Below are positions 32,175 to 52,278 of a stretch of 64,000 nt of DNA, one piece after another. Both the position numbers and the translations under genes were made by a program. Positions within the stretch are counted from its first letter, which is position 1, and every line of letters starts with the position of its first letter. Below the pieces are notes generated by a model, which saw nothing but the letters and a program-made list of their open reading frames with translations, ran no database searches and was not told the origin of the DNA. The DNA is from a virus (Duplodnaviria; Caudoviricetes). Location: the IMG/VR virus record IMGVR_UViG_3300012933_000371, positions 25,989-89,988 of that record, one strand, 5' to 3'.

Positions 32175-32203
32175 ATTATATCATAAGAGCGCATATTTGT
32201 CAA
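32175..32203 (-). promoter_or_regulatory. Consensus sigma70 late promoter
   Basis: Minus strand TTGACA-17-TATAAT upstream of the tape measure gene. Confidence 0.9.
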
Positions 32204-34828: not shown

Positions 34829-36273
34829 GCTAATACTGCTCTCATTCTGTTGGCTATTTCTGCCGAGGCTAATTCTCTGATTGACTTAGATATTAGCAGT
34901 TTAGGGTCACGTGATGTTGGCTGACTTTGGCGTCCGCCAGCAGAAAAAGTTGCGTAGGGGTTCTTCATGTACGAATAAAACGCAGTTATCATACCTTCTC
35001 GGCTTTCAGTTAGTCTTTCTACTACCGCAGAATTAGCAAGTCTGCCTGTTCTGTAGTTTAGTACATTACGACTATTGCCGGTACCCATATTTTTCTTTAT
35101 TTGTGCAGCTAAGTTTTGATTAATTAAAACCTGTATAGAAGCTAAGGAAGTAAATCTTCCCGCTAAGTTACGTATAGGCTTTGGCTTGTTAGCTTTTATC
35201 TCTGAACGTATCTTCTTAGCTTGCTGTATAAGTGCTTTATTATTAGACTTTTTAATTGCTACGGGTATCTTTTTGCTAATATTACTGGTTACTTTACCAG
35301 AATAAACTTGCTTAGATTTTTTACCAGTACTAAGCATACTGGCTAAATCTTTAGCTAACATGTCTATAAAAGTAGGAGAACTTTTACTAGTAAGTAACAT
35401 TTTACCTGTACTACTATTGTTGAAAGCTTTCTCAATCTCTGTAGAGTTTGGGGTAAATACTTTTCTAAGTTCTTCGACTACTGCTTTGGAAGCTCTTCCA
35501 GAGGATCTATTAGTTATACTATACTGCATTTCTACTAGATATTTATCTGTAGACTTTGTGTAGTTAACATTGCTGATGTTTTGGTAAACTTCTGTAGGCA
35601 TATTAGCTGAGCGAAGATCGTCTTCCTCTAGCTGTTTAATATATACGTCTAATGCGTGTACTAGGTTTTGTTTTACTTTATCTGATAAAGCGTTTGATCC
35701 CTGTACTTCGTCTTGGAATGCTTTTGTTAGATTAGCAGCAACGGAGATTACGTGCCCTTTATCAAAGAACGTGCCTATTGTAAAGTTAGGCATGGCATCA
35801 ATTTTTTGCCACTCTCTGTTATACTGCGCTTTAGTTAGCGTAGGATCTTGTGCTAATTCTTCTTTTAATCTATCCTTATGTCGCTCTGTTTGCTCGTATA
35901 AGTAGTGATCAATTTCGTCGCTTTTAAAGGCTCTGTTAAGTACTTCTGTAATAGTATCGAAGCCAATACCTTTATAAAGTACCGCATTCTGTCCGTTTAC
36001 TTTTTCAAACGAGCCTTTTATGCCGTCAACTCCAGAATTATCTGCTAGCTTTTGCAGCATTGACATTACGTCAGTTGCGTGTGCGTCTCCTGTAATAGAC
36101 TTAAAAATGTTTGAAACATCTTTAGCAGTAATCAGGAAGTCAGTTTTAGCGGCTCGCTGTTGACTAGATCGTAGTTTATCAACCGTACTACTTACTATAT
36201 TCTTTTCTAGTTTTTGAAACCAGCTTTTGTAAGCTTCTGATTGCAGTGCTTGGCTAAATTCTGCTACACTCAT
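34825..36273 (-). CDS. Tail completion / neck protein
   Basis: C-terminal LNYRTGRLANS...YSYMKNPYATF...RDPKLLISKSIRE motif; T5 p143 position. Confidence 0.65.
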   Translation of the reverse strand: MSVAEFSQALQSEAYKSWFQKLEKNIVSSTVDKLRSSQQRAAKTDFLITAKDVSNIFKSITGDAHATDVMSMLQKLADNSGVDGIKGSFEKVNGQNAVLYKGIGFDTITEVLNRAFKSDEIDHYLYEQTERHKDRLKEELAQDPTLTKAQYNREWQKIDAMPNFTIGTFFDKGHVISVAANLTKAFQDEVQGSNALSDKVKQNLVHALDVYIKQLEEDDLRSANMPTEVYQNISNVNYTKSTDKYLVEMQYSITNRSSGRASKAVVEELRKVFTPNSTEIEKAFNNSSTGKMLLTSKSSPTFIDMLAKDLASMLSTGKKSKQVYSGKVTSNISKKIPVAIKKSNNKALIQQAKKIRSEIKANKPKPIRNLAGRFTSLASIQVLINQNLAAQIKKNMGTGNSRNVLNYRTGRLANSAVVERLTESREGMITAFYSYMKNPYATFSAGGRQSQPTSRDPKLLISKSIRELASAEIANRMRAVLA

Positions 36274-40160: not shown

Positions 40161-40583
40161 TTACAAGAATTTACCAAATAGCGACATAGAGTTCGTTTCA
40201 GGAACTTTACCCTCTGCTTTGGCTTTTTGTTTCTCAATCCAATTCTTTTGTCGTTCTTCGCTGCCTAGGGCTGGTGCTTTACCGTAAACGGAGTGCAAGG
40301 ATACATGGTGCTTGTTACACAAAGTATAAACAAGGTCATATAACTCAACTCGATGTTCTTCAATAAACTCATCTCTAACAGCTAGGATTCCGTCGTCCGT
40401 AGAAATATCATAATTCTTGCGGTCTGCCCAACGGTTTAACAATACAGTAATTGAATGGAGGTGATGCAGCTCTAGATCTTCAGTTTTGTTACAGATATAA
40501 CAAAAACCTGTTTTCTCGTATGCTGCCTTGGCTTTATCCCGGACCCACTTAACGGGGATGCGGTTATTTGTATTCTTAGCCAT
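40161..40583 (-). CDS. HNH endonuclease (packaging/nicking associated)
   Basis: CYIC...LELHHLH...LCNKHH..LH; position between terminase and portal as in T5. Confidence 0.82.
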   Translation of the reverse strand: MAKNTNNRIPVKWVRDKAKAAYEKTGFCYICNKTEDLELHHLHSITVLLNRWADRKNYDISTDDGILAVRDEFIEEHRVELYDLVYTLCNKHHVSLHSVYGKAPALGSEERQKNWIEKQKAKAEGKVPETNSMSLFGKFL

Positions 40584-41330: not shown

Positions 41331-42598
41331 AGTGCGTAGCGTAGTGCATCGGCCATGTGCGAATATTCATCGTGCAGAGGCTTCTCGGATTTTAGATTTT
41401 CCCGTGTATCCCAGCGATACTGATCGAGCATAGCCAAGGTATGAACACAGTGTGGTGACACAGTTAGTCGCCCTGTTTCGATTAATGTTTGTACGTAAGC
41501 GATTCCAGGCAATACATCTTTCTTTGCCTTTATCGTAGCAATATCGTAAAGATAAGCTAAGTCCGAGGCAAACTGTGGCGCTGCGGAATCTATGAAGATA
41601 GGATCGATTGCCCATTTTTGTATTAACTCCTGAAATGCTGCTGCGTGTAAATCGGTGGTTGCTTCGGCTTTTAGGTACTCGTCAGCAACATGAAACTTGT
41701 CTAGTGACGGCTCGTAGACCACAACTACAAAAGCAGTAGGGTCACGATAACCAGGGTCACAGCCAGCTAAGGCTTCGTCGCCGTCCTTGATAACATACTC
41801 AACAATGCGATCGGTTTCAAGTTTGTAGATTTGACCCTCAAACATAGTGAAACTAGCCATGTACTCTTGTTCAAATTCTGCTCTGCTCATAGACTTGCGA
41901 GCTTCGGCTACGTCCGACTCTGCCATACGAGCGTTCTCGGTATAGTCAGCGGTTATACTACACCACTCTGGATAATCGTCACTAAACCCACGTTCAAAGA
42001 ACTTTGAAAACCAGTTGTTTTTACCACGAGGCGTTGAAATAAAGATTGCTTTTGAATTCGGCTTATCCAAAGTAGGACGTAAGGCAACGTTAAACGCTGC
42101 TTCACCATCAGCTCCTAAAGCAGCCTCATCAAAAATAATTAAGTCGTATGACCTACCAACGCAACTATCCACTGTGGATAACGAACCCATGCGAATAGTA
42201 GAGCCATTCGATAGCTCAATGATTCTGTCCTTTAAGTTATCACGTGAAATCTCCAAGTCAAAGTGACGGATCAGCTTACGTTGTAGCTCAAAAGAAATTG
42301 TTGATAAGTTGTAGTTAGGCGATATGATTAGTACATTAGCTCCGGGAACTAAGGTAACTAATTGACCAATGACATTTGCAATATAAGTCTTGCCCAAACG
42401 TCGGGCTAAAGCAGCACATACAAAACGATACTTTGGATCGTTAACAGCGTTAATTAAAGCAATCTGAGGCTCGTTGATGGTTTCGTAGATTCCTAATAAC
42501 TTTAAATAGTTAGTGATAGGAAGCTTAATAAATCGACGGGTAGCTTCAAAGTCAACAACGTAACTACGCTCAACATCAGGTCTAGAGATGGTTAGCAT
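41312..42598 (-). CDS. terL: Terminase large subunit
   Basis: Walker A (ARRLGKT), Walker B (IIFDEAA), ISTPRG, GCDPGYRDPTA and HMADALRY. Confidence 0.95.
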   Translation of the reverse strand: MLTISRPDVERSYVVDFEATRRFIKLPITNYLKLLGIYETINEPQIALINAVNDPKYRFVCAALARRLGKTYIANVIGQLVTLVPGANVLIISPNYNLSTISFELQRKLIRHFDLEISRDNLKDRIIELSNGSTIRMGSLSTVDSCVGRSYDLIIFDEAALGADGEAAFNVALRPTLDKPNSKAIFISTPRGKNNWFSKFFERGFSDDYPEWCSITADYTENARMAESDVAEARKSMSRAEFEQEYMASFTMFEGQIYKLETDRIVEYVIKDGDEALAGCDPGYRDPTAFVVVVYEPSLDKFHVADEYLKAEATTDLHAAAFQELIQKWAIDPIFIDSAAPQFASDLAYLYDIATIKAKKDVLPGIAYVQTLIETGRLTVSPHCVHTLAMLDQYRWDTRENLKSEKPLHDEYSHMADALRYALYTYTL

Positions 42599-43095
42599 TA
42601 AGTGGGCTCTCCGTTAATTAACTTGGAGATAAGGGCTCCGTACTTGGTGCCGTCGCCGATACCGTCATTGATTTGTACGTTGACTTGATTTTTGACTGCA
42701 GCGGTGGCATTACCTTGTCGCAGTTTCTCTAGTTGAATTTCCTTGTCCAACATTTCCATTGACATTTTATGTGATAAGGCGATCAAGTCGGTAATGTCTT
42801 TGTTTGAGCCAGTTTCGGACTCTTCCATATCCGATAGTTTCTTTTTAATTAAGGTATCCATTAAATCGCGCATACGAAAACGGTTGTTGAAGCCGACTTC
42901 GTAGAATACTTGGTTAACATAGGCTTTGATTTCGCCTTTCGCCAAGATGCGAGTTACGAAGTCAAGGGGCACGTCGAGCGCGTCTGCGACCTTTTGCGAA
43001 TCTTGTAGTTCCAAAAAACAGTTGGCGATTTCGAGATTTTCGGGGCTTATGGCAAGAGCCTCCGCAGGTGATTGAGTTGAAGGTAAATTTGACAT
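42598..43095 (-). CDS. terS: Terminase small subunit
   Basis: N-terminal HTH-like segment, KDITDLIALSHKM, NQVNVQIN tail; directly upstream of terL. Confidence 0.75.
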   Translation of the reverse strand: MSNLPSTQSPAEALAISPENLEIANCFLELQDSQKVADALDVPLDFVTRILAKGEIKAYVNQVFYEVGFNNRFRMRDLMDTLIKKKLSDMEESETGSNKDITDLIALSHKMSMEMLDKEIQLEKLRQGNATAAVKNQVNVQINDGIGDGTKYGALISKLINGEPT

Positions 43096-43144: not shown

Positions 43145-43334
43145 GTAAAAAATTTTTGAGCACATTGTTGCTGTGTTGTGTAAATTTGGTAGAATTAGGT
43201 ACAATAGGTACAATTGTGTGCGGGTTGTGTTAAATGGCACCCTTAGTGTTTTGGATTTGGTATCATATAGTTTACGTGGCGGGGTGCCCAGTAGCGTATA
43301 AGAAAAAGGTAGTCAAATAACCGCCCCCCGTGTG

Positions 43335-43370
43335 TACTTTTGTTTCTAAACACTTCTGCAAACAAAAGGA
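43335..43370. repeat. Inverted pair of the ACTTTTGTTT motif
   Basis: TACTTTTGTTT-N14-AAACAAAAGGA, homologous to 47738-47777. Confidence 0.7.
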
Positions 43371-43454
43371 TTACATAAGTAACCTTTCTTCTACTAGGGT
43401 AAACACCTAGAAAATAATTGTTTACATCTGCTAAATATCCCTTATAATAAACAC

Positions 43455-43565
43455 ATGACAACGAAAGACACTATGACTAAAAAAGAATTTATTGATGCTC
43501 TTGGCTTTGTGGCTTGTATTGCCCTGCCTTTTGTGCTATACTTCTATTTTGTGATGAAACCATAA
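43455..43565 (+). CDS. 36-aa membrane miniprotein, probably leaderless
   Basis: MTTKDTMTKKEFIDALGFVACIALPFVLYFYFVMKP; ATG lies 7 nt after TATAAT (43443-43448). Confidence 0.6.
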   Translation: MTTKDTMTKKEFIDALGFVACIALPFVLYFYFVMKP

Positions 43566-43587
43566 TTGATTTTTTAAGGGGAATGAA

Positions 43588-43911
43588 ATGACTGCAAAGA
43601 CTGTAAACTATACGGCAGACCAAGCCGCAAAAATGGTAGCTGACTATTTGGCTGGCGTGACTGTTGAAGCTATCGCGGCTGAGATGGGTAAATCTGCTCG
43701 CTCTGTTGTTGCTAAACTTTCACGCGAGAAGGTTTATAAGGCTAAGACTTATCAGACTAAGACAGGTGAAGCCGTGATTAAAAAAGATGCACACGCTGAT
43801 TTTATCGGCGAAGCATTGGGCTTAACTGAGGCTGATACCGATTCGCTGACTAAGGCCAACAAGGTAGCATTGGCAAAGATTGCCGATTTTATCAAGGCTG
43901 AAAAGAGCTAA
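43588..43911 (+). CDS. T5 A2-like DNA-binding protein, paralogue 1
   Basis: MTAKTVNYT...Y..G...IA..MGKSARSVVAKLSRE.VY pattern resembles my recollection of T5 A2; HTH-like. Confidence 0.6.
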   Translation: MTAKTVNYTADQAAKMVADYLAGVTVEAIAAEMGKSARSVVAKLSREKVYKAKTYQTKTGEAVIKKDAHADFIGEALGLTEADTDSLTKANKVALAKIADFIKAEKS

Positions 43912-43940
43912 GATTTTGGCAAGGGTGCAAGCCCTTGCTA

Positions 43941-43977
43941 ATTGATTTTGCCTATTGGCTTGATAGGCAAAATCAAT
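43941..43977. promoter_or_regulatory. OxyR-like four-tetramer box within a perfect 18-bp inverted repeat (43938-43980)
   Basis: ATTG-N7-CTAT-N7-ATAG-N7-CAAT versus OxyR consensus ATAG-N7-CTAT-N7-ATAG-N7-CTAT. Confidence 0.6.
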
Positions 43978-44011
43978 TAGACAAACCCAAGATTTGCGAT
44001 ATAATAAACAC

Positions 44012-44188
44012 ATGAAAACAAAAAACATCCCCCAAATTGTGCTTGATGCGGTAGCTAAAGATTTTAAATCTTTTCACACCGTGACTGCAACTGTTGCAAA
44101 TACGTTTATGGCTTCTGCTGGCAATCTCAGCATTTACTACATTGTAAATGCTGACTGTTCAGAAATTATTGATATTCAGGTAGATTGA
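44012..44188 (+). CDS. 58-aa hypothetical protein, probably leaderless
   Basis: TATAAT(44000-44005)-AAACAC-ATG. Confidence 0.65.
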   Translation: MKTKNIPQIVLDAVAKDFKSFHTVTATVANTFMASAGNLSIYYIVNADCSEIIDIQVD

Positions 44189-44189
44189 T

Positions 44190-44273
44190 ATGACAGACGG
44201 AATGCTCTTCATGCTTTTTATGCTTGGCGGCTTTGCCATTAGCTTTGTACTTCTTTTGTGGATTACAAAATGA
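44190..44273 (+). CDS. 27-aa membrane miniprotein
   Basis: MTDGMLFMLFMLGGFAISFVLLLWITK; ATGA-coupled to the next gene. Confidence 0.55.
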   Translation: MTDGMLFMLFMLGGFAISFVLLLWITK

Positions 44274-44629
44274 TTAAATCAGATACAATGCGACTCTTTG
44301 AATTAATCTTGCAAGATGAATTCAAATTAAAATCTAGAATCAATTTATCCAAAACGAAGGTTTTGCGATTTGATGGAGATTCGTGCATGGGTATGTATGA
44401 GGGTTACAAAATCTCTGCTAAGAAATTTAATCACAGAATCAGAATTGCAACTTCTGAGGTTAAAAACGACTATGACTTATTCACTACCCTAGCGCATGAA
44501 TATGTCCACGCATGGCAAATGGAGCAAAACCGCGACCTAGACCACGACACCGATTCAGGTTTTACCGCTTGGCGTAATTACTTTAAAACGTGTTATAATG
44601 TTGATATTGTATCTTTTGGAGCAAATTAA
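44270..44629 (+). CDS. HEXXH zinc metallopeptidase-like protein
   Basis: TTLAHEYVHAWQ...HD motif. Confidence 0.65.
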   Translation: MIKSDTMRLFELILQDEFKLKSRINLSKTKVLRFDGDSCMGMYEGYKISAKKFNHRIRIATSEVKNDYDLFTTLAHEYVHAWQMEQNRDLDHDTDSGFTAWRNYFKTCYNVDIVSFGAN

Positions 44630-44953
44630 ATGGCAACTATCGTAATGGATTCTCAAAAGGTTATCAACGCGGCTCAAATCGTAATTGATAAAATTATGGC
44701 TCACCGCGATGCGCGGGATGAAAAAGCAATCGCAAATGAAATGGCGACCCGTTCGCTGGGCTGGCGCGGGTTTTATTGGCCTACGCGAGAGCAAGCCATT
44801 GACGCGCTTGATCGTTCGGATTCTTGGGGCTGGCGTTCAATATACGCATGGGGCGATTATGCTCACGCTAAAAAGTTGCTTTTGTTGGCACAACACGGCG
44901 ACCCCGTTACACTAAACGAAGAAGATATTATTGTCTTGGCTAAGGGGCTTTAA
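44630..44953 (+). CDS. Hypothetical protein
   Basis: 107-aa ORF with GGAG SD, in a tight operon. Confidence 0.7.
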   Translation: MATIVMDSQKVINAAQIVIDKIMAHRDARDEKAIANEMATRSLGWRGFYWPTREQAIDALDRSDSWGWRSIYAWGDYAHAKKLLLLAQHGDPVTLNEEDIIVLAKGL

Positions 44954-44954
44954 A

Positions 44955-45092
44955 ATGTATATCGAAATGACTACTTTTGCTGTTCCTGCCTTTTTGGTAG
45001 CTGGGCTTAAATTCTTGGCTTTGGTTTCGCTTGGCTGGCTGGCTGTTGGTTTTGTGGGCGTGACTATTTATCAACTTTGGGGCACAAAATGA
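44955..45092 (+). CDS. 45-aa membrane miniprotein
   Basis: MYIEMTTFAVPAFLVAGLKFLALVSLGWLAVGFVGVTIYQLWGTK; ATGA-coupled. Confidence 0.6.
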   Translation: MYIEMTTFAVPAFLVAGLKFLALVSLGWLAVGFVGVTIYQLWGTK

Positions 45093-45382
45093 AAACTGTT
45101 TTCACTAAAAAATTCTGGCAAATTAAACGCGCAAATTGGCAAATTGTAAAATTCAAATACTTTTATTCTTGGCAAAACACGCTAAAATTAATTGTTGCAC
45201 TTGGCGTTATTTTGCCCGTTTGCATTATATTTGTAATGATACCTAGCTGGTTTTTTAATTTGCTAGAAGAATTTGTGCGGGAAAATATGCCATTTAAAGT
45301 TGACGAAAACCCAGAATGGATTAAAATGCAAATGAACGGACAAACCCGTGATTTTATGATGCAATTTAAAACATGGGAATAA
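45089..45382 (+). CDS. Single-TM membrane protein
   Basis: MKTVF start overlaps the upstream stop; central hydrophobic segment. Confidence 0.6.
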   Translation: MKTVFTKKFWQIKRANWQIVKFKYFYSWQNTLKLIVALGVILPVCIIFVMIPSWFFNLLEEFVRENMPFKVDENPEWIKMQMNGQTRDFMMQFKTWE

Positions 45383-45392
45383 GGGGCACAAA

Positions 45393-45554
45393 ATGAAAAT
45401 CAAAAAAGTTATTCGCACAATTACCGATGATTTTGGCAAAGCTGGGCGCGTTGAATATCATATTCTTCGTGATGACGGCTCACTGGTAGACGTTGAGCTA
45501 GATTATGGCACCGCATGGGTTCGAATGCTGGTTTACGAAAACTTGGATAAATGA
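45393..45554 (+). CDS. 53-aa hypothetical protein
   Basis: AAGGGG SD; MKIKKVIRTITDDFGKAGRVEYHILRDDG... Confidence 0.6.
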   Translation: MKIKKVIRTITDDFGKAGRVEYHILRDDGSLVDVELDYGTAWVRMLVYENLDK

Positions 45555-45690
45555 ATACTTTTGTTTCCAACTCAAAATGAGAACTTTTGTTTCTCATTTT
45601 GAGGCGCCAAAATTATACCACATAATTTTGGGGCTTGTCAAGGCTTTTCTGATTAATTTTCGCTATCGGGGCGATAGATTTTTACAATCG
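45554..45690 (-). repeat. Pre-early cassette 1: palindrome + GGCGCC + leftward TTGACA-18-TATAAT + OxyR-like box
   Basis: 13-bp inverted repeat 45571-45603; -10 at 45612-45617; -35 at 45636-45641; ATTA-N7-CTAT-N7-ATAG-N7-CAAT at 45652-45688. Confidence 0.85.
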
Positions 45691-45731
45691 TGATTTTGGC
45701 TTTTGGCCGTTTTTTGCGCTATAATAAACAC

Positions 45732-45857
45732 ATGAAAACAATTTACACACCAAACCAAAAAGCGCGATTCAATCGTTTTTGTGATCGTCACGGCCTTGCA
45801 TTTGCTACAATTACAGAGTATAATGCGGCTATCGAACAATTTTTCTCAGGGGAATAA
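45732..45857 (+). CDS. 41-aa hypothetical protein, probably leaderless
   Basis: TATAAT(45720-45725)-AAACAC-ATG; MKTIYTPNQKARFNRFCDRHGL... Confidence 0.65.
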   Translation: MKTIYTPNQKARFNRFCDRHGLAFATITEYNAAIEQFFSGE

Positions 45858-45859
45858 AA

Positions 45860-46336
45860 ATGGCTAAAATTAACCGCGTTGCAATTTACGACATGGACGG
45901 CACGATTGTAGATTCAAGCCACCGCTATCGCACAATTACTGATGAAAATGGCGAGCGTATAGATTTGGATTTTTGGCGAGAAAATGAATATCGCGCAATG
46001 GATGACGGATTGTTGCCCATGTTTTCACAATATGAAAAAGATTTGGCTGACGAAAATTGTTATACAATTATTGCAACTGCGCGGGTAATGAACGAACCAG
46101 ATTGGCAATTCGTAAACGAAATTTTAGGCGCTCCAGATTATTTTATTTCTCGCCCTGCGGGTTCTGATATTTCAGGCAAAACGCTAAAAATTAATGGCCT
46201 TGCAAAATTCTTTAATCTGGTAACTTTCAAAGATGCTGATTTTGTTTTTTACGAAGATAATATTAGCTATCTAAAAGCCGTTTGCGATAGGTTTAATATT
46301 CGCGGGGTTTATATCCCAAGCGTTCAAGGCCATTAA
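45860..46336 (+). CDS. HAD-superfamily phosphatase (PNK 3'-phosphatase / nucleotidase-like)
   Basis: YDMDGT, IATAR, K and YEDN: HAD motifs I-IV. Confidence 0.8.
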   Translation: MAKINRVAIYDMDGTIVDSSHRYRTITDENGERIDLDFWRENEYRAMDDGLLPMFSQYEKDLADENCYTIIATARVMNEPDWQFVNEILGAPDYFISRPAGSDISGKTLKINGLAKFFNLVTFKDADFVFYEDNISYLKAVCDRFNIRGVYIPSVQGH

Positions 46337-46470
46337 TACTTTGGTTTGCAATTCAAAATGAGAAACAAAAGTTCTCATTTTGAGGCGCCAAAATTATAAC
46401 ATATAATTTTGGGGCTTGTCAAGCATTTTGCGATTAATTTTTTCTATCGGGGCGATAGATTTTATTTATT
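46335..46470 (-). repeat. Pre-early cassette 2
   Basis: 12-bp inverted repeat 46353-46383; -10 at 46393-46398; -35 at 46417-46422; ATTA-N7-CTAT-N7-ATAG-N7-TTAT at 46433-46469. Confidence 0.85.
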
Positions 46471-46568
46471 GCATTTTTCGATTTTCAGGCGTTTTTGTTG
46501 TATAATCTTTTCATTGGTTCAATAGAATCAATCAGCGAATTCCGACTGTATCGGTAATTGGAAACAAA

Positions 46569-47267
46569 ATGGCTAAAAAACAATTCTTTGCGATTCTCGA
46601 CACTGAAACAACTATTGCCGATACTGTGGCCGATTTTGCCATTGTGATTTGTGATCGTGATGGCAAAATTTATAATCAATGCGCGGTATTGGTAAAAGAT
46701 CAATTTGACGCGCACGAATTATTTTATGATAAAAATGCCAAGGGTCTTTGGTCTTTGCAATATGCAAAGGACAAACGCGCAAAATACAACGATATGCTTA
46801 ATTCTGGTTCTAGAATGTTAGCTTCTGTTTCTGCAATCAATAACTGGATTAATCAAGCCATTGGCAAGTATAACCCAACTTTGACCGCTTACAATTTGGC
46901 TTTTGATAAATCAAAATGTGCAAACACAGGTATTACATTGGACGGCTTTTCTGATAACTTTTGTTTGTGGCAAGCGGCTGTTGGCAATATCTGCAACACT
47001 AAAAAATTCAAGCAATTTTGCCTAGAAAATCATGCGTTCAATGCCCCTACTGAATTTGGCAATATGACTTTTAAAACAAACGCCGAGATTGTTTGCGGGT
47101 TTATTAATGGCGGGTTTGTTGAAGAACCGCATACCGCGCTCGAAGATGCGCGCGATTTTGAATTGCCGATTTTGCGCGAGATTATCAAAAAACGCGATTG
47201 GAAACAAAAGGTAACACCTTATAACTGGCGCGAATTTCAAACCCGTGACCATTTCCAAGCCAAGTAA
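46569..47267 (+). CDS. DEDDh (DnaQ-like) 3'-5' exonuclease
   Basis: LDTETT (ExoI), AYNLAFD (ExoII), HTALED (ExoIII). Confidence 0.85.
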   Translation: MAKKQFFAILDTETTIADTVADFAIVICDRDGKIYNQCAVLVKDQFDAHELFYDKNAKGLWSLQYAKDKRAKYNDMLNSGSRMLASVSAINNWINQAIGKYNPTLTAYNLAFDKSKCANTGITLDGFSDNFCLWQAAVGNICNTKKFKQFCLENHAFNAPTEFGNMTFKTNAEIVCGFINGGFVEEPHTALEDARDFELPILREIIKKRDWKQKVTPYNWREFQTRDHFQAK

Positions 47268-47429
47268 TCTAGGAATGTAGGCCGAAAGGCCTACATTTAA
47301 TAAAATGAGATATTTGTGGGTTTTTGCTCTTTTGTTGCATTTATACAACGACAAAAAATTAAATGATGAATTTATTTTTGAATCGTGTTATAATACAATA
47401 ACGGTAGACGAAATTTATAGGGGTTAAAA

Positions 47430-47687
47430 ATGGAAACAATCGGCTGGCTGGGTTCACTACTTTTTGCGTTTTGCGGGTTGCCCCAAGCCGTGGAAAGTTA
47501 CCGCGCAAAAAATTCTGACGGGCTAACGTGGGGATTTTTGATGATGTGGTTTTGGGGTGAGGTGTTTACTTTTGTTTACGTTTTGCCTACCATGTTGTGG
47601 CCTTTGGTTTTCAACTATACCGCGAATTTTATATTTTTAGCAGTTATTTTGTATTACAAAATAAAACCCACAAGAAACAAAAGTTAA
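47430..47687 (+). CDS. PQ-loop / SemiSWEET-like membrane protein
   Basis: GWLGS...LPQA...S.GL motif, three TM helices, P...N in TM3. Confidence 0.8.
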   Translation: METIGWLGSLLFAFCGLPQAVESYRAKNSDGLTWGFLMMWFWGEVFTFVYVLPTMLWPLVFNYTANFIFLAVILYYKIKPTRNKS

Positions 47688-47695
47688 CACTTTTT

Positions 47696-47717
47696 AAAAA
47701 GCCCCGAAGGGCTTTTT
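47696..47717. terminator. Bidirectional intrinsic terminator
   Basis: AAAAAGCCCCGAAGGGCTTTTT; the minus strand forms GCCC-UUCG-GGGC-UUUUU. Confidence 0.85.
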
Positions 47718-47730
47718 ATTTTGCCAAAAA

Positions 47731-47826
47731 TAAAATGAATACTTTTGTTTGCAGAAATTCTTGGAAACAAAAGTATTACATTTTGGGGCGCCAAAATTAT
47801 AGCATATACTTTTGGCCCGTGTCAAG
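47731..47826 (-). repeat. Pre-early cassette 3
   Basis: 13-bp inverted repeat 47738-47777; GGCGCC; -10 at 47796-47801; -35 at 47820-47825. Confidence 0.85.
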
Positions 47827-47892
47827 CAAAATAAATTAACTTATTTTTTGTAGGGGTATTATTTTTGGGGATTTTTATTGTATAATCTTCAC

Positions 47893-48270
47893 ATGGACAA
47901 AACGATTTTAACCCGCTTACTAAAACGCGAATCGGCTATGATTTGGGATTCGCTTTGCGAGATATATCCCGCACTTGTTTTTCACGACTGCCCGAAAATT
48001 AGCCTTAATGGTAGATTATGGCGCGTGGCGGGTTTAAACGATCAAGCCGAAAATTCTATTGAATTGGGCTATAAATTCTTTGCACATAGCAAAAAATATG
48101 CCAACTATATGATTGATGTTATTTTGCCACATGAGATTATACATCAAGCCGATTATAATTTATTTGGCGAAAGCGAAAAAATTTGTGGGCATGGCGTAAA
48201 ATGGCGTGAAATTATGGTAAACTATGGTTTAGACGCTGACCCGTTTCATACAATGGATATTAAACGATGA
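47893..48270 (+). CDS. SprT-like zinc metalloprotease, probably leaderless
   Basis: LNGRL...AG, ILPHEIIH, HG..WREIM; TATAAT(47881-47886)-CTTCAC-ATG. Confidence 0.8.
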   Translation: MDKTILTRLLKRESAMIWDSLCEIYPALVFHDCPKISLNGRLWRVAGLNDQAENSIELGYKFFAHSKKYANYMIDVILPHEIIHQADYNLFGESEKICGHGVKWREIMVNYGLDADPFHTMDIKR

Positions 48271-48380
48271 TAGAAAAAATTTTATGGGGTATTTTGTGGG
48301 GGGTTGTGATAATGGCCCCGCATATATGGTATAATTGGCACATAGCAAAACAAAACAAACGAGCAAAACAAAATGACTAA
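48267..48380 (+). CDS. 37-aa membrane miniprotein
   Basis: MIEKILWGILWGVVIMAPHIWYNWHIAKQNKRAKQND; overlaps both neighbours. Confidence 0.5.
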   Translation: MIEKILWGILWGVVIMAPHIWYNWHIAKQNKRAKQND

Positions 48381-48585
48381 ATTTTTTGAAACCTTTGGTA
48401 CTATTGCTGGAATTATTGGTGCTTTTCTTGTAGCACTTACGTTTGCAGGAATTGGATACTATTTTTTCTTTTGTAGTTCTTTTTGCCTAATGATATCGGC
48501 GATTCGTCAGAAACAAAAGAATTACATTGCGCTACAAACTACATTCTTTTTGGCTAACGTGATCGGATTGTTAAATTATGCGTAA
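48373..48585 (+). CDS. Small multi-TM membrane protein
   Basis: Three hydrophobic segments in 70 aa. Confidence 0.65.
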   Translation: MTKFFETFGTIAGIIGAFLVALTFAGIGYYFFFCSSFCLMISAIRQKQKNYIALQTTFFLANVIGLLNYA

Positions 48586-48651
48586 ATAATTTAAAAAATC
48601 TTGAAAATCTGAAAAAACTGTGATATAATGAATTTTTAAAGGGGATTTGAA

Positions 48652-48978
48652 ATGACTGCAAAAACTGTAAACTACACCGCCGAGCAAACTGCTAAGATTG
48701 TGGCCGATTATTTGGCTGGCGTGACTGTCGAAGCCTTGGCCGCTGAATTGGGAAAATCAGCCCGTTCGGTTGTTGCGAAATTGTCACGCGAAGGCGTATA
48801 TAAGGCAAAAGTATACAAAACCAAAACTGGCGCGGCTGTGGTCAAAAAAGATGCTCACGCCGATGCAATCGGCGCTATTTTGCAATTGAGCGAAAATGAA
48901 ATCGAAAGTTTGACAAAAGCAAATAAAACTGCGCTGGAAAAGATTTTTTCAGCACTTGCAAATTCTAAGCCAGTTTAA
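48652..48978 (+). CDS. T5 A2-like protein, paralogue 2
   Basis: Highly similar to 43588-43911; own promoter TTGAAA-17-TATAAT. Confidence 0.6.
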   Translation: MTAKTVNYTAEQTAKIVADYLAGVTVEALAAELGKSARSVVAKLSREGVYKAKVYKTKTGAAVVKKDAHADAIGAILQLSENEIESLTKANKTALEKIFSALANSKPV

Positions 48979-48992
48979 GCCGAAAGGCTTAC

Positions 48993-49022
48993 AAAGCCCC
49001 TCAATTTCGAGGGGCTTTTTTT
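48993..49022 (+). terminator. Intrinsic terminator
   Basis: AAGCCCCTC-AATTTC-GAGGGGCTT followed by a T run. Confidence 0.85.
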
Positions 49023-49040
49023 CGTGCAAACGCAAATGCA

Positions 49041-49059
49041 AATGAGAATCATTCGCATT
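49041..49059. promoter_or_regulatory. Fur box-like 9-1-9 palindrome
   Basis: AATGAGAAT-C-ATTCGCATT, one mismatch from perfect dyad; extra AAATGC hexamer upstream. Confidence 0.65.
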
Positions 49060-49060
49060 T

Positions 49061-49103
49061 GGCGGCGCCAAAATTATACCACATAATTTTGGGCTGTGTC
49101 AAG
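49061..49103 (-). promoter_or_regulatory. Pre-early cassette 4: leftward TTGACA-18-TATAAT + GGCGCC
   Basis: -10 at 49073-49078; -35 at 49097-49102. Confidence 0.85.
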
Positions 49104-49131
49104 GATTTTTTAATACCCGAGTAATTTACTC

Positions 49132-49190
49132 TGGCATGGTTCTTGCGCCGCGGGCAGGCATGGTTCTTGCTATTAGCAAAATACGTGCCA
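49132..49190. promoter_or_regulatory. Three sigma54 -24/-12 boxes
   Basis: + strand TGGCATG-GTTC-TTGC (49132-49146) and AGGCATG-GTTC-TTGCT (49156-49171); - strand TGGCACG-TATT-TTGCT (49175-49190). All are GG-N10-GC. Confidence 0.75.
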
Positions 49191-49315
49191 CCACTCAATA
49201 ATGCATAATTATTAATTATCGTGGCATAATTATAAATTACCAGAAATTTTCACGTTATGAAAACCTATGCCACCATGTAAAATTGAGTACCTTTGACTTA
49301 CAACACCAAGCGCGC

Positions 49316-49447
49316 TGCGCCAGTGGCAAAGCAACAAGTGCAAATTCAACGACGTGCCGTGCGCCAGTGGCTGGTCAAGTGCAAATTCTAGTATGTATAG
49401 GCCGCAGAGCCTGGCAAGTGCAAAAATTTACTGTTGAGTGCAAATTC
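49316..49447 (+). repeat. Four AGTGCAAA direct repeats plus two GCGCCAGTGG
   Basis: Cores at 49337, 49378, 49417 and 49437. Confidence 0.75.
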
Positions 49448-49491
49448 AAAAAGTTTTATAATTGTTTTACAAAAGCAGCAAAGGAACTGAA

Positions 49492-49626
49492 ATGACAGAA
49501 CATGAATTTTATCAACAAATTCAGTTGGAGTGGTTCTGTGAATTTGTGAGTGCAGAACTATCCAAAAATCCTCAAGATGTCAACACTCACCGCGAATTTT
49601 TTGAATTTGACGACGTTCCCTTCTAA
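49492..49626 (+). CDS. 44-aa acidic miniprotein ending FDDVPF (SSB C-terminal tip-like)
   Basis: Promoter TTGAGT-17-TATAAT (49434-49462), SD AAGGA, MTEHEFYQQIQLEWFCEFVSAELSKNPQDVNTHREFFEFDDVPF. Confidence 0.7.
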   Translation: MTEHEFYQQIQLEWFCEFVSAELSKNPQDVNTHREFFEFDDVPF

Positions 49627-49671
49627 TGTTACAATAGAATCTTAAACAGCGCAGAAACCAACAAAGGACAT

Positions 49672-49989
49672 ATGATGACTAAAGAAACCAAAACAGTAAA
49701 CTACACTCCAGAACAAACTAAGGCAATTGTGGAGGCATACCAGGCAGGTGCTAGCGTGGAAACTATTGCCAAGGAAATGCAAAAATCCACTCGAAGCATT
49801 GTTGCTAAGCTGGCTCGTGAAGGTGTGTACCAAGCCAAATCTAAAGCCAAGGGCACTCAAGCTCCACGCAAATCCGAGTTGATTACTCAAATTGCTCACA
49901 GCATCGGCACTAACGAAGAGTTGATCGAGTCGCTTGAGAAAGCTACCCGCGAAGCTTTGGAGCTGATTGCAAAGGCTGTTAAACAGTAA
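49672..49989 (+). CDS. T5 A2-like protein, paralogue 3
   Basis: VNYTPEQT...Y.AG..VE.IA...KS.RSIVAKL.REGVY; promoter TTGACG-17-TACAAT (49607-49635). Confidence 0.6.
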   Translation: MMTKETKTVNYTPEQTKAIVEAYQAGASVETIAKEMQKSTRSIVAKLAREGVYQAKSKAKGTQAPRKSELITQIAHSIGTNEELIESLEKATREALELIAKAVKQ

Positions 49990-50014
49990 CAGTTTAGGGT
50001 CAGAAAAAATAAAC

Positions 50015-50043
50015 TTGCTCTGACCCTCTTTTTGCGATATAAT
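50015..50043 (+). promoter_or_regulatory. sigma70 promoter of the long ncRNA
   Basis: TTGCTC-17-TATAAT, -35 embedded in the AGGGTCAGA/TCTGACCCT hairpin. Confidence 0.75.
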
Positions 50044-50270
50044 TATTACTTAGAAAACGAAATAACAACACTGGGACAGCCTGCCACGCTAACTAATTTA
50101 ATCTTGAATACGCAAGCTGTCCCATGTTATAATAATATATCTACTCAGCAAACAGATTACTCAACGAGTCTGTTTGGTAAGTAGTCTGTTTTTGGTGTTA
50201 TGAGCCCAGCCATATATAGCTGGATAACAACTTAATGGTGACCGAAATCTCTAGTCACCGCCTCCCCTAC

Positions 50271-50369
50271 TCCTCTGATGAGCTTATGAAATTTAAGCGA
50301 AACCCAAGCCTTCGTGGCAAGTGTGCGAGCGTCTCCCACCGTTCCACTTGCTACACCTTAGGGTCAGGA
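50271..50369 (+). ncRNA. Type I hammerhead ribozyme
   Basis: CUGAUGA 50275-50281; stem II GCUUA/UAAGC; GAAA 50299-50302; stem III CCC-AAG/CUU-A-GGG extended by GUGGCAAGUG/CACUUGCUAC; GUC ending at 50365; stem I UCCU/AGGA. Confidence 0.8.
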
Positions 50370-50700
50370 CGAAATCCCTAGCGCGTACCACTTGCTGGTG
50401 TTAGGTAAAGAGTAACTCCTAGGTAGCCTACCCTATACCTAAGGCCCCGCTCCGCTATGATCGGGTCACGACTAAACTAGAAATGACCCTAAACTGTGGA
50501 GGGTGCAATAATATATCCAGTCGACTCAGGTTTGCAAAGTCGTTAAGTGTGAGCGCATTCAAGATCCTCCTACTCAGCTAAATCCTTTTATTAACCAAAA
50601 CCAAAGGTAACGCAGTTTAGGATCAGGCAATAAGAGTCCAAGTTGGTTACTTGGCAGTAAGGCTCCTGATTTGGAATAAAAACTTAGTGACGACTAGTTC

Positions 50701-50740
50701 AAAAGCCCCTTCATCCGCAAGATGTTGGGGCTTTTGTTTT
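50701..50740. terminator. Bidirectional intrinsic terminator
   Basis: AAAAGCCCC...CATC-CGCAA-GATG...GGGGCTTTT GTTTT. Confidence 0.8.
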
Positions 50741-50758
50741 GCCTATACGCTCTGCGCC

Positions 50759-50787
50759 ATTTTACCATAGTGCGACAGCAATGTCAA
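50759..50787 (-). promoter_or_regulatory. Leftward sigma70 promoter followed by GGCGC
   Basis: Minus strand TTGACA-17-TAAAAT-GGCGC, firing into the 50701 terminator. Confidence 0.7.
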
Positions 50788-50899
50788 GTGAGTTTTCTAC
50801 GACTTCTGACCCTAAACCGCATAAACTTGGAGAACCTCAAGCACCCACACGCGCTTGACCCTAAACTTGGCCAGTTGACGCCAGAGGCGTCCAATTTGC

Positions 50900-50934
50900 C
50901 CCCACAAAGTACCCACGTAAAAAAGCCCGAATAT
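50900..50934 (-). terminator. Intrinsic terminator
   Basis: AAAAAAGCCCGA...TCGGGCTTTT downstream of A2-like paralogue 4 (coordinates approximate). Confidence 0.55.
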
Positions 50935-50980
50935 CCTGCGATATCGGGCTTTTTGTCGAATTAACTCAAATTATGTCGAA

Positions 50981-51301
50981 TTAATTCAATTTAGGGTCAG
51001 ATTTGGACTCCAAATTCTGTTCGATCATTAACAAGACCTGTTTATTGACCTTTTCTAGGCTTTCGAGTAGCTCTAGGTTGCATTGTAGCAATTCTGCAAT
51101 CCGTTCAATGTGTTCTGACTTTTTTGTTGGCACCTCACCGCGTTTGTTGAGGTACTGCTTTTTTTGGTAGACACCCAGTGAGCTGAGCTTGGCAATAATG
51201 CTGCGTTCTGGCACCTGGAACTGTTGAGCTAGTGCTTGGACGGTCACACCGGCTTGATAGTCTGCGATCAACTGTTTGGTAGATTCATTTGTGTATTTCA
51301 T
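50981..51301 (-). CDS. T5 A2-like protein, paralogue 4
   Basis: MKYTNEST...ADYQAGVTV.ALA.....ERSIIAKLSSLGVY...RGE...KK.EH.E.IA..L......LESLEK. Confidence 0.6.
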   Translation of the reverse strand: MKYTNESTKQLIADYQAGVTVQALAQQFQVPERSIIAKLSSLGVYQKKQYLNKRGEVPTKKSEHIERIAELLQCNLELLESLEKVNKQVLLMIEQNLESKSDPKLN

Positions 51302-51303
51302 GA

Positions 51304-52278
51304 TTAAATCTCCCAAGGTAAGTCTGAACCATCGCTTTTTGATACATACTTATTTTGAGCAGTTTGGGGTCTAAACAAATCTGTAACAATTAGAGGTGCT
51401 GGCATAGAATCCCAACTCTCAGGATCTAAAACCATATACGGAGTACGATTACTTGGGTGTGCACACCAAATTTGGGAATACATTACTTGAGCTAAGTGTG
51501 GTACTGCTTGTAAACATCCGCCTTTTGTAGACCATAATTTAAAACTACTTTGTGGATTACGGCTTTCACCCCTTTTAGGGCCACTTTGATAAATTAACCC
51601 TAATTCACGAGCTTTTAAAATATCTTCTCGTGTATAGTTGCCTTCATGAAGCATTGCTTCACATAAACTATCGTTGACTACCCACTTTAGGGTCTTTCGA
51701 TCCCAACGTGAATATGGAATTTTGTGGTGCAGTTTATAAGCATAAGGAATTAGTGGAACTAAAGCACAAAACTGAGCCCCCTCGCCTTTGTACTGGCTAG
51801 AGAGATATGCACTGCGTGAGTCCAGCATTAAAAACATGTATAGTCCACGTTCCCATTCGCTGTCAAAATCAAAAGCGTGCTTTAAAATCTTGCTGCCATC
51901 AATCTGACCCTCAGCTGTTGAAACTTCCGATAATCGAAATGGTCTATTGGCAATATGTGCCATGATTTGGGGCAGTACTGAAATTAAGAGTGTACTAAGC
52001 TTATATCGTGGAATCCAAATATCTATGGCAGCTTTTTGCCCAGCTTTCTTTCGGACTTCTGCTTTGCTGTACTGTTGAAGCTCTACTTGGTCGCCAAAGC
52101 TGACTTCGCTAGAGGCTTCATGAGTAGCTGCATACCTTTGTTCTAGTGCAGCTACTTCGTTTTCGTATTTGTCTCGTACATGCTGTTCCATACCCTCAAC
52201 TGCAGCGTCTGCAGCGTCTGTATAGATTTCATATAGTTTGTCAAACGGGATTGTTTTAAGTTGTCGGTTAATTATCAT
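51304..52278 (-). CDS. 324-aa protein of unknown function
   Basis: Long ORF, no motif recognised, co-directional with paralogue 4. Confidence 0.8.
   Translation of the reverse strand: MIINRQLKTIPFDKLYEIYTDAADAAVEGMEQHVRDKYENEVAALEQRYAATHEASSEVSFGDQVELQQYSKAEVRKKAGQKAAIDIWIPRYKLSTLLISVLPQIMAHIANRPFRLSEVSTAEGQIDGSKILKHAFDFDSEWERGLYMFLMLDSRSAYLSSQYKGEGAQFCALVPLIPYAYKLHHKIPYSRWDRKTLKWVVNDSLCEAMLHEGNYTREDILKARELGLIYQSGPKRGESRNPQSSFKLWSTKGGCLQAVPHLAQVMYSQIWCAHPSNRTPYMVLDPESWDSMPAPLIVTDLFRPQTAQNKYVSKSDGSDLPWEI

Follow-up and report, generated by a model that had tools for sequence, protein, structure and literature searches.

In T4-like myoviruses, short conserved early promoters of the sigma70 type are joined to stem-loops; these composite terminator/promoter units, termed promoter-early stem-loops (PeSLs), are repeated between small accessory genes, and gene cassettes are reshuffled there (Arbiol et al. 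2010; Comeau et al. 2014; PMC2839356; PMC4122927). In phage T5 (NC_005859; Wang et al. 2005), the portal, terL and terS genes lie on the minus strand near the right end, with small genes on the plus strand beyond them and then the terminal repeat. Within this repeat, plus-strand genes give way to a 1-kb injection stop signal (iss; Repeat Region 3), beyond which lie leftward early genes. These two are the nearest known kinds to the region described here, which is found next to terS at 43330-50790 of a 64-kb window, that is, the whole stretch analysed, comprising the final 64 kb of an 89,988-bp IMG/VR viral contig (IMGVR_UViG_3300012933_000371) with a completeness rating of 85%. What is novel is a composite divergent cassette built around a promoter class that we name Pas (TTGACA, 18 nt, TGnTATAAT, TTTGGCGCC, then a hairpin) and that is antisense in every copy. 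An initial annotation had described the region as a dense array of docking sites for the host transcription machinery; its observation proved largely right, but of its interpretation, in which regulators of host stress dock at the array, only a part finds support. The evidence best fits a T5-type takeover module of divergent promoter/terminator cassettes, followed by iss-like repeats and then by a ribozyme-bearing RNA.

The Pas promoter class

Four sites in the region match the sigma70 promoter consensus at all 12 positions, each with TG and an 18-bp spacer and all on the minus strand, their -35 elements starting at 45641, 46422, 47825 and 49102; a fifth minus-strand promoter, P5, at 50787 matches at 11 of 12. 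The five near-perfect promoters pointing against the gene flow that the initial annotation had listed are thus all present, between plus-strand genes. All four perfect sites belong to a 63-nt repeat family which, within the genome, occurs only in this region. Promoter-like sites are in twofold excess here (50 against 25.3 ± 4.7 in shuffled sequences), while a late-region control (30-40 kb) shows no excess (17 against 22.6), and the 35-nt family pattern had 0 chance matches in 100 shuffles.

Pas1 (45571-45641, minus strand) has its -35 at 45636-45641, its -10 at 45612-45617 and GGCGCC at 45603-45608, followed by the hairpin AAAATGAGAA/TTCTCATTTT at 45571-45602; in Pas2 (46353-46422, minus strand) the -35 lies at 46417-46422, GGCGCC at 46384-46389 and the hairpin at 46353-46384. 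These two have AT-rich hairpins only; the other three run into bidirectional terminators of upstream genes. For Pas3 (47696-47825, minus strand; -35 at 47820-47825, GGCGCC at 47787-47792, a long hairpin at 47738-47777) the terminator is GC-rich and located at about 47699-47718; for Pas4 (48990-49102, minus strand; -35 at 49097-49102, GGCGCC at 49064-49069) it lies at 48993-49018, past a palindrome at 49033-49062 that is both Fur-like and T5-iss-like. P5 (50700-50787, minus strand) emerged from the promoter scan as a non-palindromic family member of the form TTGACA-17-TGGTAAAAT-GGCGCAG. The RNAs predicted from Pas3, Pas4 and P5 would be about 95, 78 and 53 nt long, respectively; fold z-scores of the predicted RNAs of the window range from -3.7 to -6.9, with -6.2 for Pas3 and -6.9 for Pas4.

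Searches of GenBank phage DNA, with the whole region as well as with a 50-nt element, gave no match and no cultured close relative, and among bacterial genomes the Pas core was found only in five short contigs, from metagenome bins of inconsistent taxonomy, which provide no clue to the host. Among sequencing runs, the phage was traced to two DNA runs, in each as a small share present in contigs, and to no RNA run. Among viral contigs, the palindromic core is present in at least 119, in which TTGACA (on one side only), TG and CGCC are kept although they lay outside the query, and in which the elements face against the flanking open reading frames (ORFs); the -35, TG and -10 positions, none of them part of the query, are conserved in 150+ copies. 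To avoid ascertainment bias, 68 related loci were chosen through a neighbouring conserved protein of 232 residues (phrog_20187; PHROG match, 46569-47267, plus strand); in these the family pattern, TTGAC.-N15-20-TA.AAT-N1-6-GGCGC, recurs 337 times in antisense and 0 times in sense orientation, so that the sigma70 sites are conserved in related phages together with their direction. Many metagenome contigs, five related ones among them, have an end within about 100 nt of a Pas copy; evidently the repeats break assemblies, and those ends are not genome ends.

The promoter is, in addition, self-complementary. Its spacer mirrors the -10 together with the discriminator, giving palindromes of 8-14 bp, and arms of at least 8 bp are found in 148 of 222 distinct copies, as opposed to 0 of 1110 spacer-shuffled controls. 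The spacer arm follows the variant of the -10 and discriminator (TACAAT-TTTGG goes with CCAAAATTGT, TAAAAT-TGG with CCAATTTT), and such compensatory matching holds even between copies inside one genome; that the arm tracks each variant argues for a pairing constraint, not for the sequence preference of one protein. It might be supposed that the elements are selected chiefly as DNA sites, either as recombination points for the exchange of cassettes, as suggested for the PeSLs of T4, or as single-strand nick sites of the T5 type (Pu/GCGC) beside a hairpin. A self-complementary spacer and -10 could be extruded from the duplex to form a DNA hairpin, direct repeats that are identical over 38-60 nt are spaced within 5-8 kb, cassette order varies between genomes with Pas at the borders, and GGCGCC occurs just six times in the 90 kb genome, four of these in Pas. 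T5 DNA, moreover, is nicked on one strand at Pu/GCGC, three of its four major sites reading GCGCAGGG; the nick at 9748 is also located beside a hairpin, and P5-type members carry GGCGCAG. Still, such a function is very unlikely to be the main one: neither recombination nor nicking needs a perfect -35, TG and -10 at the right spacing, yet all of these are conserved, the similarity to the nick consensus spans only 4-6 nt, and the nick sites of T5 are not promoters. The T5 sites reading Pu/GCGCAGGG (L121, L205-L207) have CGTAA(T/C) about 33 nt upstream, and the likeness to GGCGCAG is maybe a coincidence.

Downstream of Pas, a hairpin stands within 14 nt of GGCGC in 210 of 273 copies (mean stem 10.9 bp), palindrome families recur at +5 to +45, and 35% of copies have a GC-rich terminator with a T-run, most often at a distance of 25-100 nt; in control windows the share is 7%. 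That Pas precedes a conserved small ORF was considered and rejected; the ATG in the hairpins of the window is not conserved. One could envisage that Pas drives long antisense RNAs which shut off the pre-early genes, similar to the shut-off in T5, and that the palindrome is an operator timed by a protein like T5 A2. Pas1 and Pas2 have no GC-rich terminator before the upstream coding sequence, about 65% of copies have no clear terminator within 200 nt, and the hairpin lies 2-8 nt from the RNA 5′ end. A stem-loop close to the 5′ end is a classic arrangement by which RNAs are stabilized (RNase E). The recurring palindrome families and the four A2-family DNA-binding paralogs of the phage would suit such an operator, and the class has its own discriminator, the sequence that separates the temporal promoter classes of T5 (PMC7472727). 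However, a consensus promoter would be active from the first moment and is not an obvious late switch, and terminators are enriched five-fold just downstream of Pas. Furthermore, the modelled A2-like protein, predicted for the third paralog to fold into two three-helix bundles, gave nothing significant in a fold search and just weak likeness to MntR and to bipartite helix-turn-helix domains of transposases; on balance, antisense shut-off is an improbable primary function.

Divergent sense promoters and the cassette

On the gene strand, a TATAAT lies within 200 nt upstream of the Pas -35 in 196 of 269 copies, 166 of them at a distance of 40-100 nt, compared with 38 on the other strand; this divergent sense promoter has no good -35. 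In about half of the cases an ATG follows exactly 6-7 nt past the sense TATAAT. Among the relatives, TATAAT-N6-ATG occurs at 114 distinct sense-strand sites, while a gap of 4, 5 or 8 nt yields 5-8 sites; at 88 of the 114 an ORF of at least 30 codons begins. As judged from sequence, this is the spacing typical of leaderless mRNAs. Four starts of this type are found on the plus strand of the window (ATG at 43455, 44012, 45733 and 47893, with the -10 at 43443, 44000, 45720 and 47881). The promoter scan marked a site at 43421-43565 (plus strand), where TTTACA-16-TATAAT is followed after 6 nt by the ATG of a 36-codon ORF, a second at 45696-45857 (plus strand), where the -10 (45720-45725) is divergent from Pas1 and the putatively leaderless ATG at 45733 opens an ORF of 41 codons, and a third at 47881-48270 (plus strand), where the -10 at 47881-47886 precedes the likewise leaderless-type ATG at 47893 of an SprT-like protein (copy 2, profile match).

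Phage lambda offers a parallel: its promoters PR and PRM are placed back to back, and the mRNA of the weak partner begins at the AUG. There, as by prediction here, a strong promoter adjoins a weak one making a leaderless mRNA, and palindromic operators overlap; unlike in lambda, the strong partner of the present pair leads to a terminator and not to a protein gene, and each genome contains four to eight such units. The palindrome CTATCG-N3-CGATAG, which lies between Pas and the divergent sense promoter (45663-45677 and 46444-46458) and is also found in seven related loci, is a candidate binding site through which one regulator could control the two promoters.

With a probability of roughly 0.55, we consider the region to be a T5-type pre-early module of a distant T5-like siphovirus and Pas to be a real class of host sigma70 promoters within composite divergent cassettes. 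This class, with its consensus -35, extended -10 and fixed start region TTTGGCGC(C), would extend through the phage group. Along the gene strand, a cassette would consist of the end of gene n, a palindrome or bidirectional terminator, Pas pointing back, 40-100 bp of T-rich DNA, a sense promoter and gene n+1; the sense promoter would be a TATAAT without a -35, often with the ATG 6-7 nt on, and would give rise to a leaderless mRNA. Pas would fire away from gene n+1 and into the terminator of gene n, and since it meets a terminator or palindrome there, its predicted products are short hairpin RNAs, some 35-100 nt long, which would have the hairpin at their start and be antisense just to the 3′ end of gene n. 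The likeliest role would be to insulate the cassette from read-through and to damp the upstream gene via head-on transcription and antisense pairing. Next in likelihood, Pas may aid the weak divergent sense promoter, by local negative supercoiling or by recruiting polymerase on freshly injected linear DNA; least likely of the three, the identical direct repeats may allow exchange of gene cassettes. The palindromes at the start of the Pas transcript, together with related repeats at 49.0-49.5 kb, would most simply be operators for the four A2-like paralogs. The sequence anatomy and its conservation, the fixed strand, the pairing with sense promoters, the excess of terminators, the reshuffling of cassettes and the homology to T5 pre-early genes are seen directly; transcription from Pas, the RNA ends and each of these functions are what we infer from them.

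As with PeSLs, gene cassettes are reshuffled at the elements in this phage group: gene order is permuted between genomes, the blocks SprT2-g48373, dmp, g46569-PQ and A2-like changing places. In contrast to the PeSL promoter, which is co-oriented with the genes, Pas is directed against the flanking genes without exception; its spacer and -10 are self-complementary, and a separate sense promoter, devoid of a -35 and often leaderless, lies 40-100 bp away. PeSLs reside in T4-like myoviruses, while the carriers of Pas are T5-like siphoviruses.

Several observations weigh against regarding Pas as a host promoter of a T5-type module. The first hairpin is not followed by an enrichment of T-runs (2.5 of 8 nt, which equals background), and because a clear terminator is seen in only about one third of the copies, many Pas RNAs may be long antisense RNAs. 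Counts of G-U pairs (52 vs 37) give no indication of which strand's RNA is selected, and an ordinary promoter would not account for a spacer and -10 selected to be self-complementary. Recognition by sigma70 is assumed from the consensus; and since an antisense array of consensus promoters is absent from T5, the terminal repeat of which shows no excess of promoter sites, knowledge gained with T5 is not transferable to this point.

Pre-early-like setting and possible sites for host proteins

The terL product is 49% identical to terminases of T5-like Vibrio phages and of Pectobacterium phage My1. Up to terS (42598-43095) the minus strand is occupied by structural genes; a block of small plus-strand genes, whose PHROG and Pfam matches show them to be genuine, lies directly beyond, and leftward genes begin again at 50981, so that T5 and this phage share the position of the region beside terS and terL as well as the succession of plus-strand genes, a gene-free repeat stretch and leftward genes. 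A HAD-type phosphatase of 158 residues (45860-46336, plus strand) is a homolog of the T5 pre-early deoxynucleoside-5′-monophosphatase Dmp (tblastn, E 2.5e-11). T5 A2 belongs to phrog_1725 (E 4e-52), a family with only four matches in the genome (E 7e-10 to 1e-4), all in the region; as with dmp, these are remote homologs. Profile matches place the A2-family DNA-binding proteins at 43588-43911 (plus strand, paralog 1), at 48652-48978 (plus strand, paralog 2, with DNA about 70% identical to that of paralog 1), at 49672-49989 (plus strand, paralog 3, the best phrog_1725 match, which carries PF26822) and at 50981-51316 (minus strand, paralog 4, with which the leftward block past the region opens). 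Owing to this homology and to the synteny with T5 ends, the label "pre-early" given in the initial annotation is supported, and so is the view of the stretch as a T5 pre-early-like host-takeover block.

Unlike T5, the phage has no A1 homolog (neither a phrog_1745 nor a tblastn match in a contig that is 85% complete) and no DnaA boxes in the region. The N-terminus of the 232-residue protein encoded at 46569-47267 (FAILDTETT) resembles the first motif of DEDD-type 3′-5′ exonucleases, and this protein may substitute for the missing A1 nuclease function. No long terminal repeat was found in contigs of the relatives, in which the end repeats of just 51-123 bp are assembly overlaps.

Three sigma54-consensus boxes were located at 49132-49190 by motif scan, two of them direct (plus strand, 49132 and 49156, reading TGGCATGGTTCTTGC and AGGCATGGTTCTTGC) and one inverted (minus strand, 49175-49190); the latter is a perfect TGGCACGNNNNTTGCT, with the spacing of -24 TGGCAC and -12 TTGC exact, and faces box 2 at a distance of 5 bp. 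Relatives carry TGGCACGATTCTTGC at the same place; their boxes (CTGGCACGATTCTTGCT) show the full sigma54 consensus and mostly comprise two direct copies, separated by 26 nt, and a third in inverted orientation, immediately past the last Pas. The exact 15-mer is found in 29 distinct contexts. The three boxes previously noted are therefore real as motifs, beyond chance and conserved in relatives, but conservation is confined to a sub-clade; they are missing altogether from four of five near-complete relatives and hence are not essential to the whole group. A sigma54 activator (PF00158) is encoded neither in the genome of the window nor in four near-complete relatives; a host activator is possible.

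Of the other regulator sites proposed at first, the Fur-like box is weak: AAATGAGAATCATTCGC at 49040 matches 13 of 16 core positions, but the 19-mer GATAATGATAATCATTATC has no match with up to three mismatches. The three OxyR-like boxes could not be recovered (ATAGnTnnnAnCTAT-N7-ATAGnTnnnAnCTAT, up to three mismatches) and probably derive from the CTATCGGGGCGATAG hairpins at 45663 and 46444. With OxyR sites absent and the Fur match weak, there is no support for the idea that the region is wired to the stress state of the host (peroxide, iron). Neither LexA boxes nor OxyR sites occur anywhere in the window.

The gene-free and repeat-dense stretch at 49.0-49.5 kb, which has T5-like words and none of the paired DnaA boxes of T5, resembles the injection-stop repeats of T5. 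The Pas4 palindrome AAATGAGAATCATTCGCATTTG and its counterpart in relatives, CCAAATGCGAATCATTATCATTTGCG, share words with the T5 iss palindromes AAATGAGAATCATTATCATTTGCATT; at 49305-49462 (plus strand), a repeat search found the direct repeats GCGCCAGTGGC and AAGTGCAAATTC, which are similar to the T5 iss DRD repeats GTGCAAATCCGACA and are followed by a sense promoter at 49434-49462. Palindromes of the AAATGAGAATCATT type and direct repeats of the GTGCAAAT type are thus shared by, or similar in, the two phages. In our own alignment the iss-like palindrome words agree with the Fur box at 13-15 of 16 core positions. The injection-stop palindromes of T5 (AAATGAGAATCATTATC..., L121 9560-9720) match 15 of 16, a likeness for which no publication was found.

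Repeats of this kind raise the question, in line with the initial annotation, of whether the array acts mainly by binding host proteins and not by making RNA, either as a brake or hold on DNA entry or by titrating host factors; sigma70 holoenzyme would sit at Pas, sigma54 holoenzyme in closed complexes at TGGCAC-N5-TTGC, and Fur or another regulator at the palindromes. For T5, binding of host DnaA has been proposed as the mechanism of the injection stop (Davison, bioRxiv 10.1101/866236), and in this phage the sigma54-type boxes stand in place of the T5 DnaA boxes, next to the iss-like repeats. They match the full consensus YTGGCACGrNNNTTGCW and recur, tandem and inverted, at an equivalent position in many relatives; the opposed orientation of boxes 2 and 3 makes little sense for productive promoters. 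Since the phages of the group do not encode an activator of sigma54, bound holoenzyme would stay closed unless a host activator acts, and the uniform direction of all Pas copies would also fit. We regard this mode of action as unlikely, nevertheless, given the relatives that lack the sigma54 box, the missing DnaA, LexA and OxyR sites and the failure of the Fur match in the 19-mer test; Pas copies are spread one per cassette and paired with sense promoters, not gathered at a stop point. Distinctly unlikely is a wider reading, in which the first-entering DNA of this branch of T5-like phages serves to capture host polymerase in complexes that are fixed and either non-productive or short-cycle, at strand-locked consensus sigma70 promoters with a mirrored spacer and at sigma54 closed-complex sites where T5 has DnaA boxes, thereby braking stepwise entry and supercoiling leaderless takeover genes. 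If true, the T5 "injection stop" in general would be an array of host-protein docking sites, the identity of which varies by phage lineage.

A candidate hammerhead-bearing RNA and the wider meaning

Two repeat families recorded as unknown in the initial annotation were found again. Of GAAACAAAAG(TATTAC), eight of the nine genome copies lie in the region; to this family belongs the inverted repeat TACTTTTGTTTC...AAACAAAAGGATTACAT (43330-43376; repeat search), in the divergent control region of terS (minus strand) and the first plus-strand gene. The second family, TTTAGGGTCAG, with seven copies in 49993-50990, is the cleavage-site strand of a predicted hammerhead ribozyme, the other six copies lying nearby. 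Elsewhere in the genome it has 11 copies against about 1.4 expected (own estimate, 11-mer, one mismatch). These 11, of the form (C/T)TTAGGGTCAG, are inside coding regions on both strands, for instance at 34900, 39732, 53011, 53928, 58919, 60197 and 62057, and their orientation relative to the genes is inconsistent.

The ribozyme would be part of a candidate non-coding RNA of about 600 nt (50104-50740, plus strand), delimited by a promoter at 50104-50133 and a terminator at 50703-50735. In this candidate RNA no ORF reaches 51 codons, and the gene-free stretch at 50.0-50.76 kb is conserved at the nucleotide level in 35 related loci. By alignment, a type I hammerhead motif was recognized at 50265-50375 (plus strand), with the core CUGAUGAG-stem II-CGAAAC and predicted cleavage after GGGUC (50364/50365); the alignment is invariant in CUGAUGAG...CGAAAC...GGGUC/AGGA, and this is the sole hammerhead core in the genome. 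In 18 homologs the core is invariant; stem II is 100% paired, and in three of its five pairs both partners vary, while pairing in stem III amounts to 92%. Of 500 shuffled controls, none attains the observed values on four of the five measures, and two do so on the remaining one. An Rfam scan of the window at gathering score and one of 49.0-51.1 kb at E ≤ 1 missed the ribozyme, while narrow scans gave sub-threshold matches at the same place in two sequences, namely Hammerhead_3 (18.9 vs 48.5 bits) and, in a relative, HH9 (20.2 vs 52). A type III hammerhead was rejected, as its stem III would hold only three pairs. Of type I hammerheads (Rfam clan CL00010; Perreault et al. 2011), the core CUGAUGA, GAAA, the A15.1-U16.1 pair and C17 are all present; unlike in typical members, some 50 nt are inserted into stem III, stem I is limited to 3-6 bp and the motif forms part of a phage RNA about 600 nt long. 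In five relatives a tRNA is located immediately 5′ of the ribozyme. Some 0.75 kb of the stretch is, on this evidence, a putative RNA gene with a predicted hammerhead ribozyme and not a set of docking sites.

Among the remaining genes of the region are those of a first SprT-like small protein (44258-44629, plus strand) and of a PQ-loop membrane protein (47430-47687, plus strand), both assigned by profile match. Outside the region, a small gene for an HNH-type endonuclease (CYICN...HHLHSI; 40161-40583, minus strand) adjoins the portal and terminase genes, as in T5. A 12/12 promoter with an extended -10 (32175-32203, minus strand) points in sense direction towards the gene of the 2428-residue tape measure protein, just past a bidirectional terminator; it has no GGCGC and is hence outside the Pas class. 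Methylation sites GANTC, linked to a weak GcrA match, are not enriched. An N4-like virion RNA polymerase reading hairpin promoters was considered and rejected, the giant ORFs being those of the tape measure and of a fibre with repeat domains.

How the first-injected DNA and the injection pause of T5-like phages are controlled is a question about sixty years old. This uncultured lineage appears to organize that region in another way, by sequence rules of unusual clarity: an antisense-locked promoter class, a selected self-complementarity of spacer and -10, systematically leaderless takeover genes and sigma54-type boxes at the place of the T5 DnaA boxes. The hammerhead-containing RNA would join the few large phage non-coding RNAs with a recognizable catalytic part, and the cassettes would be a second, independent example, after the PeSLs of T4, of regulatory repeats that organize the shuffling of accessory genes in phages.

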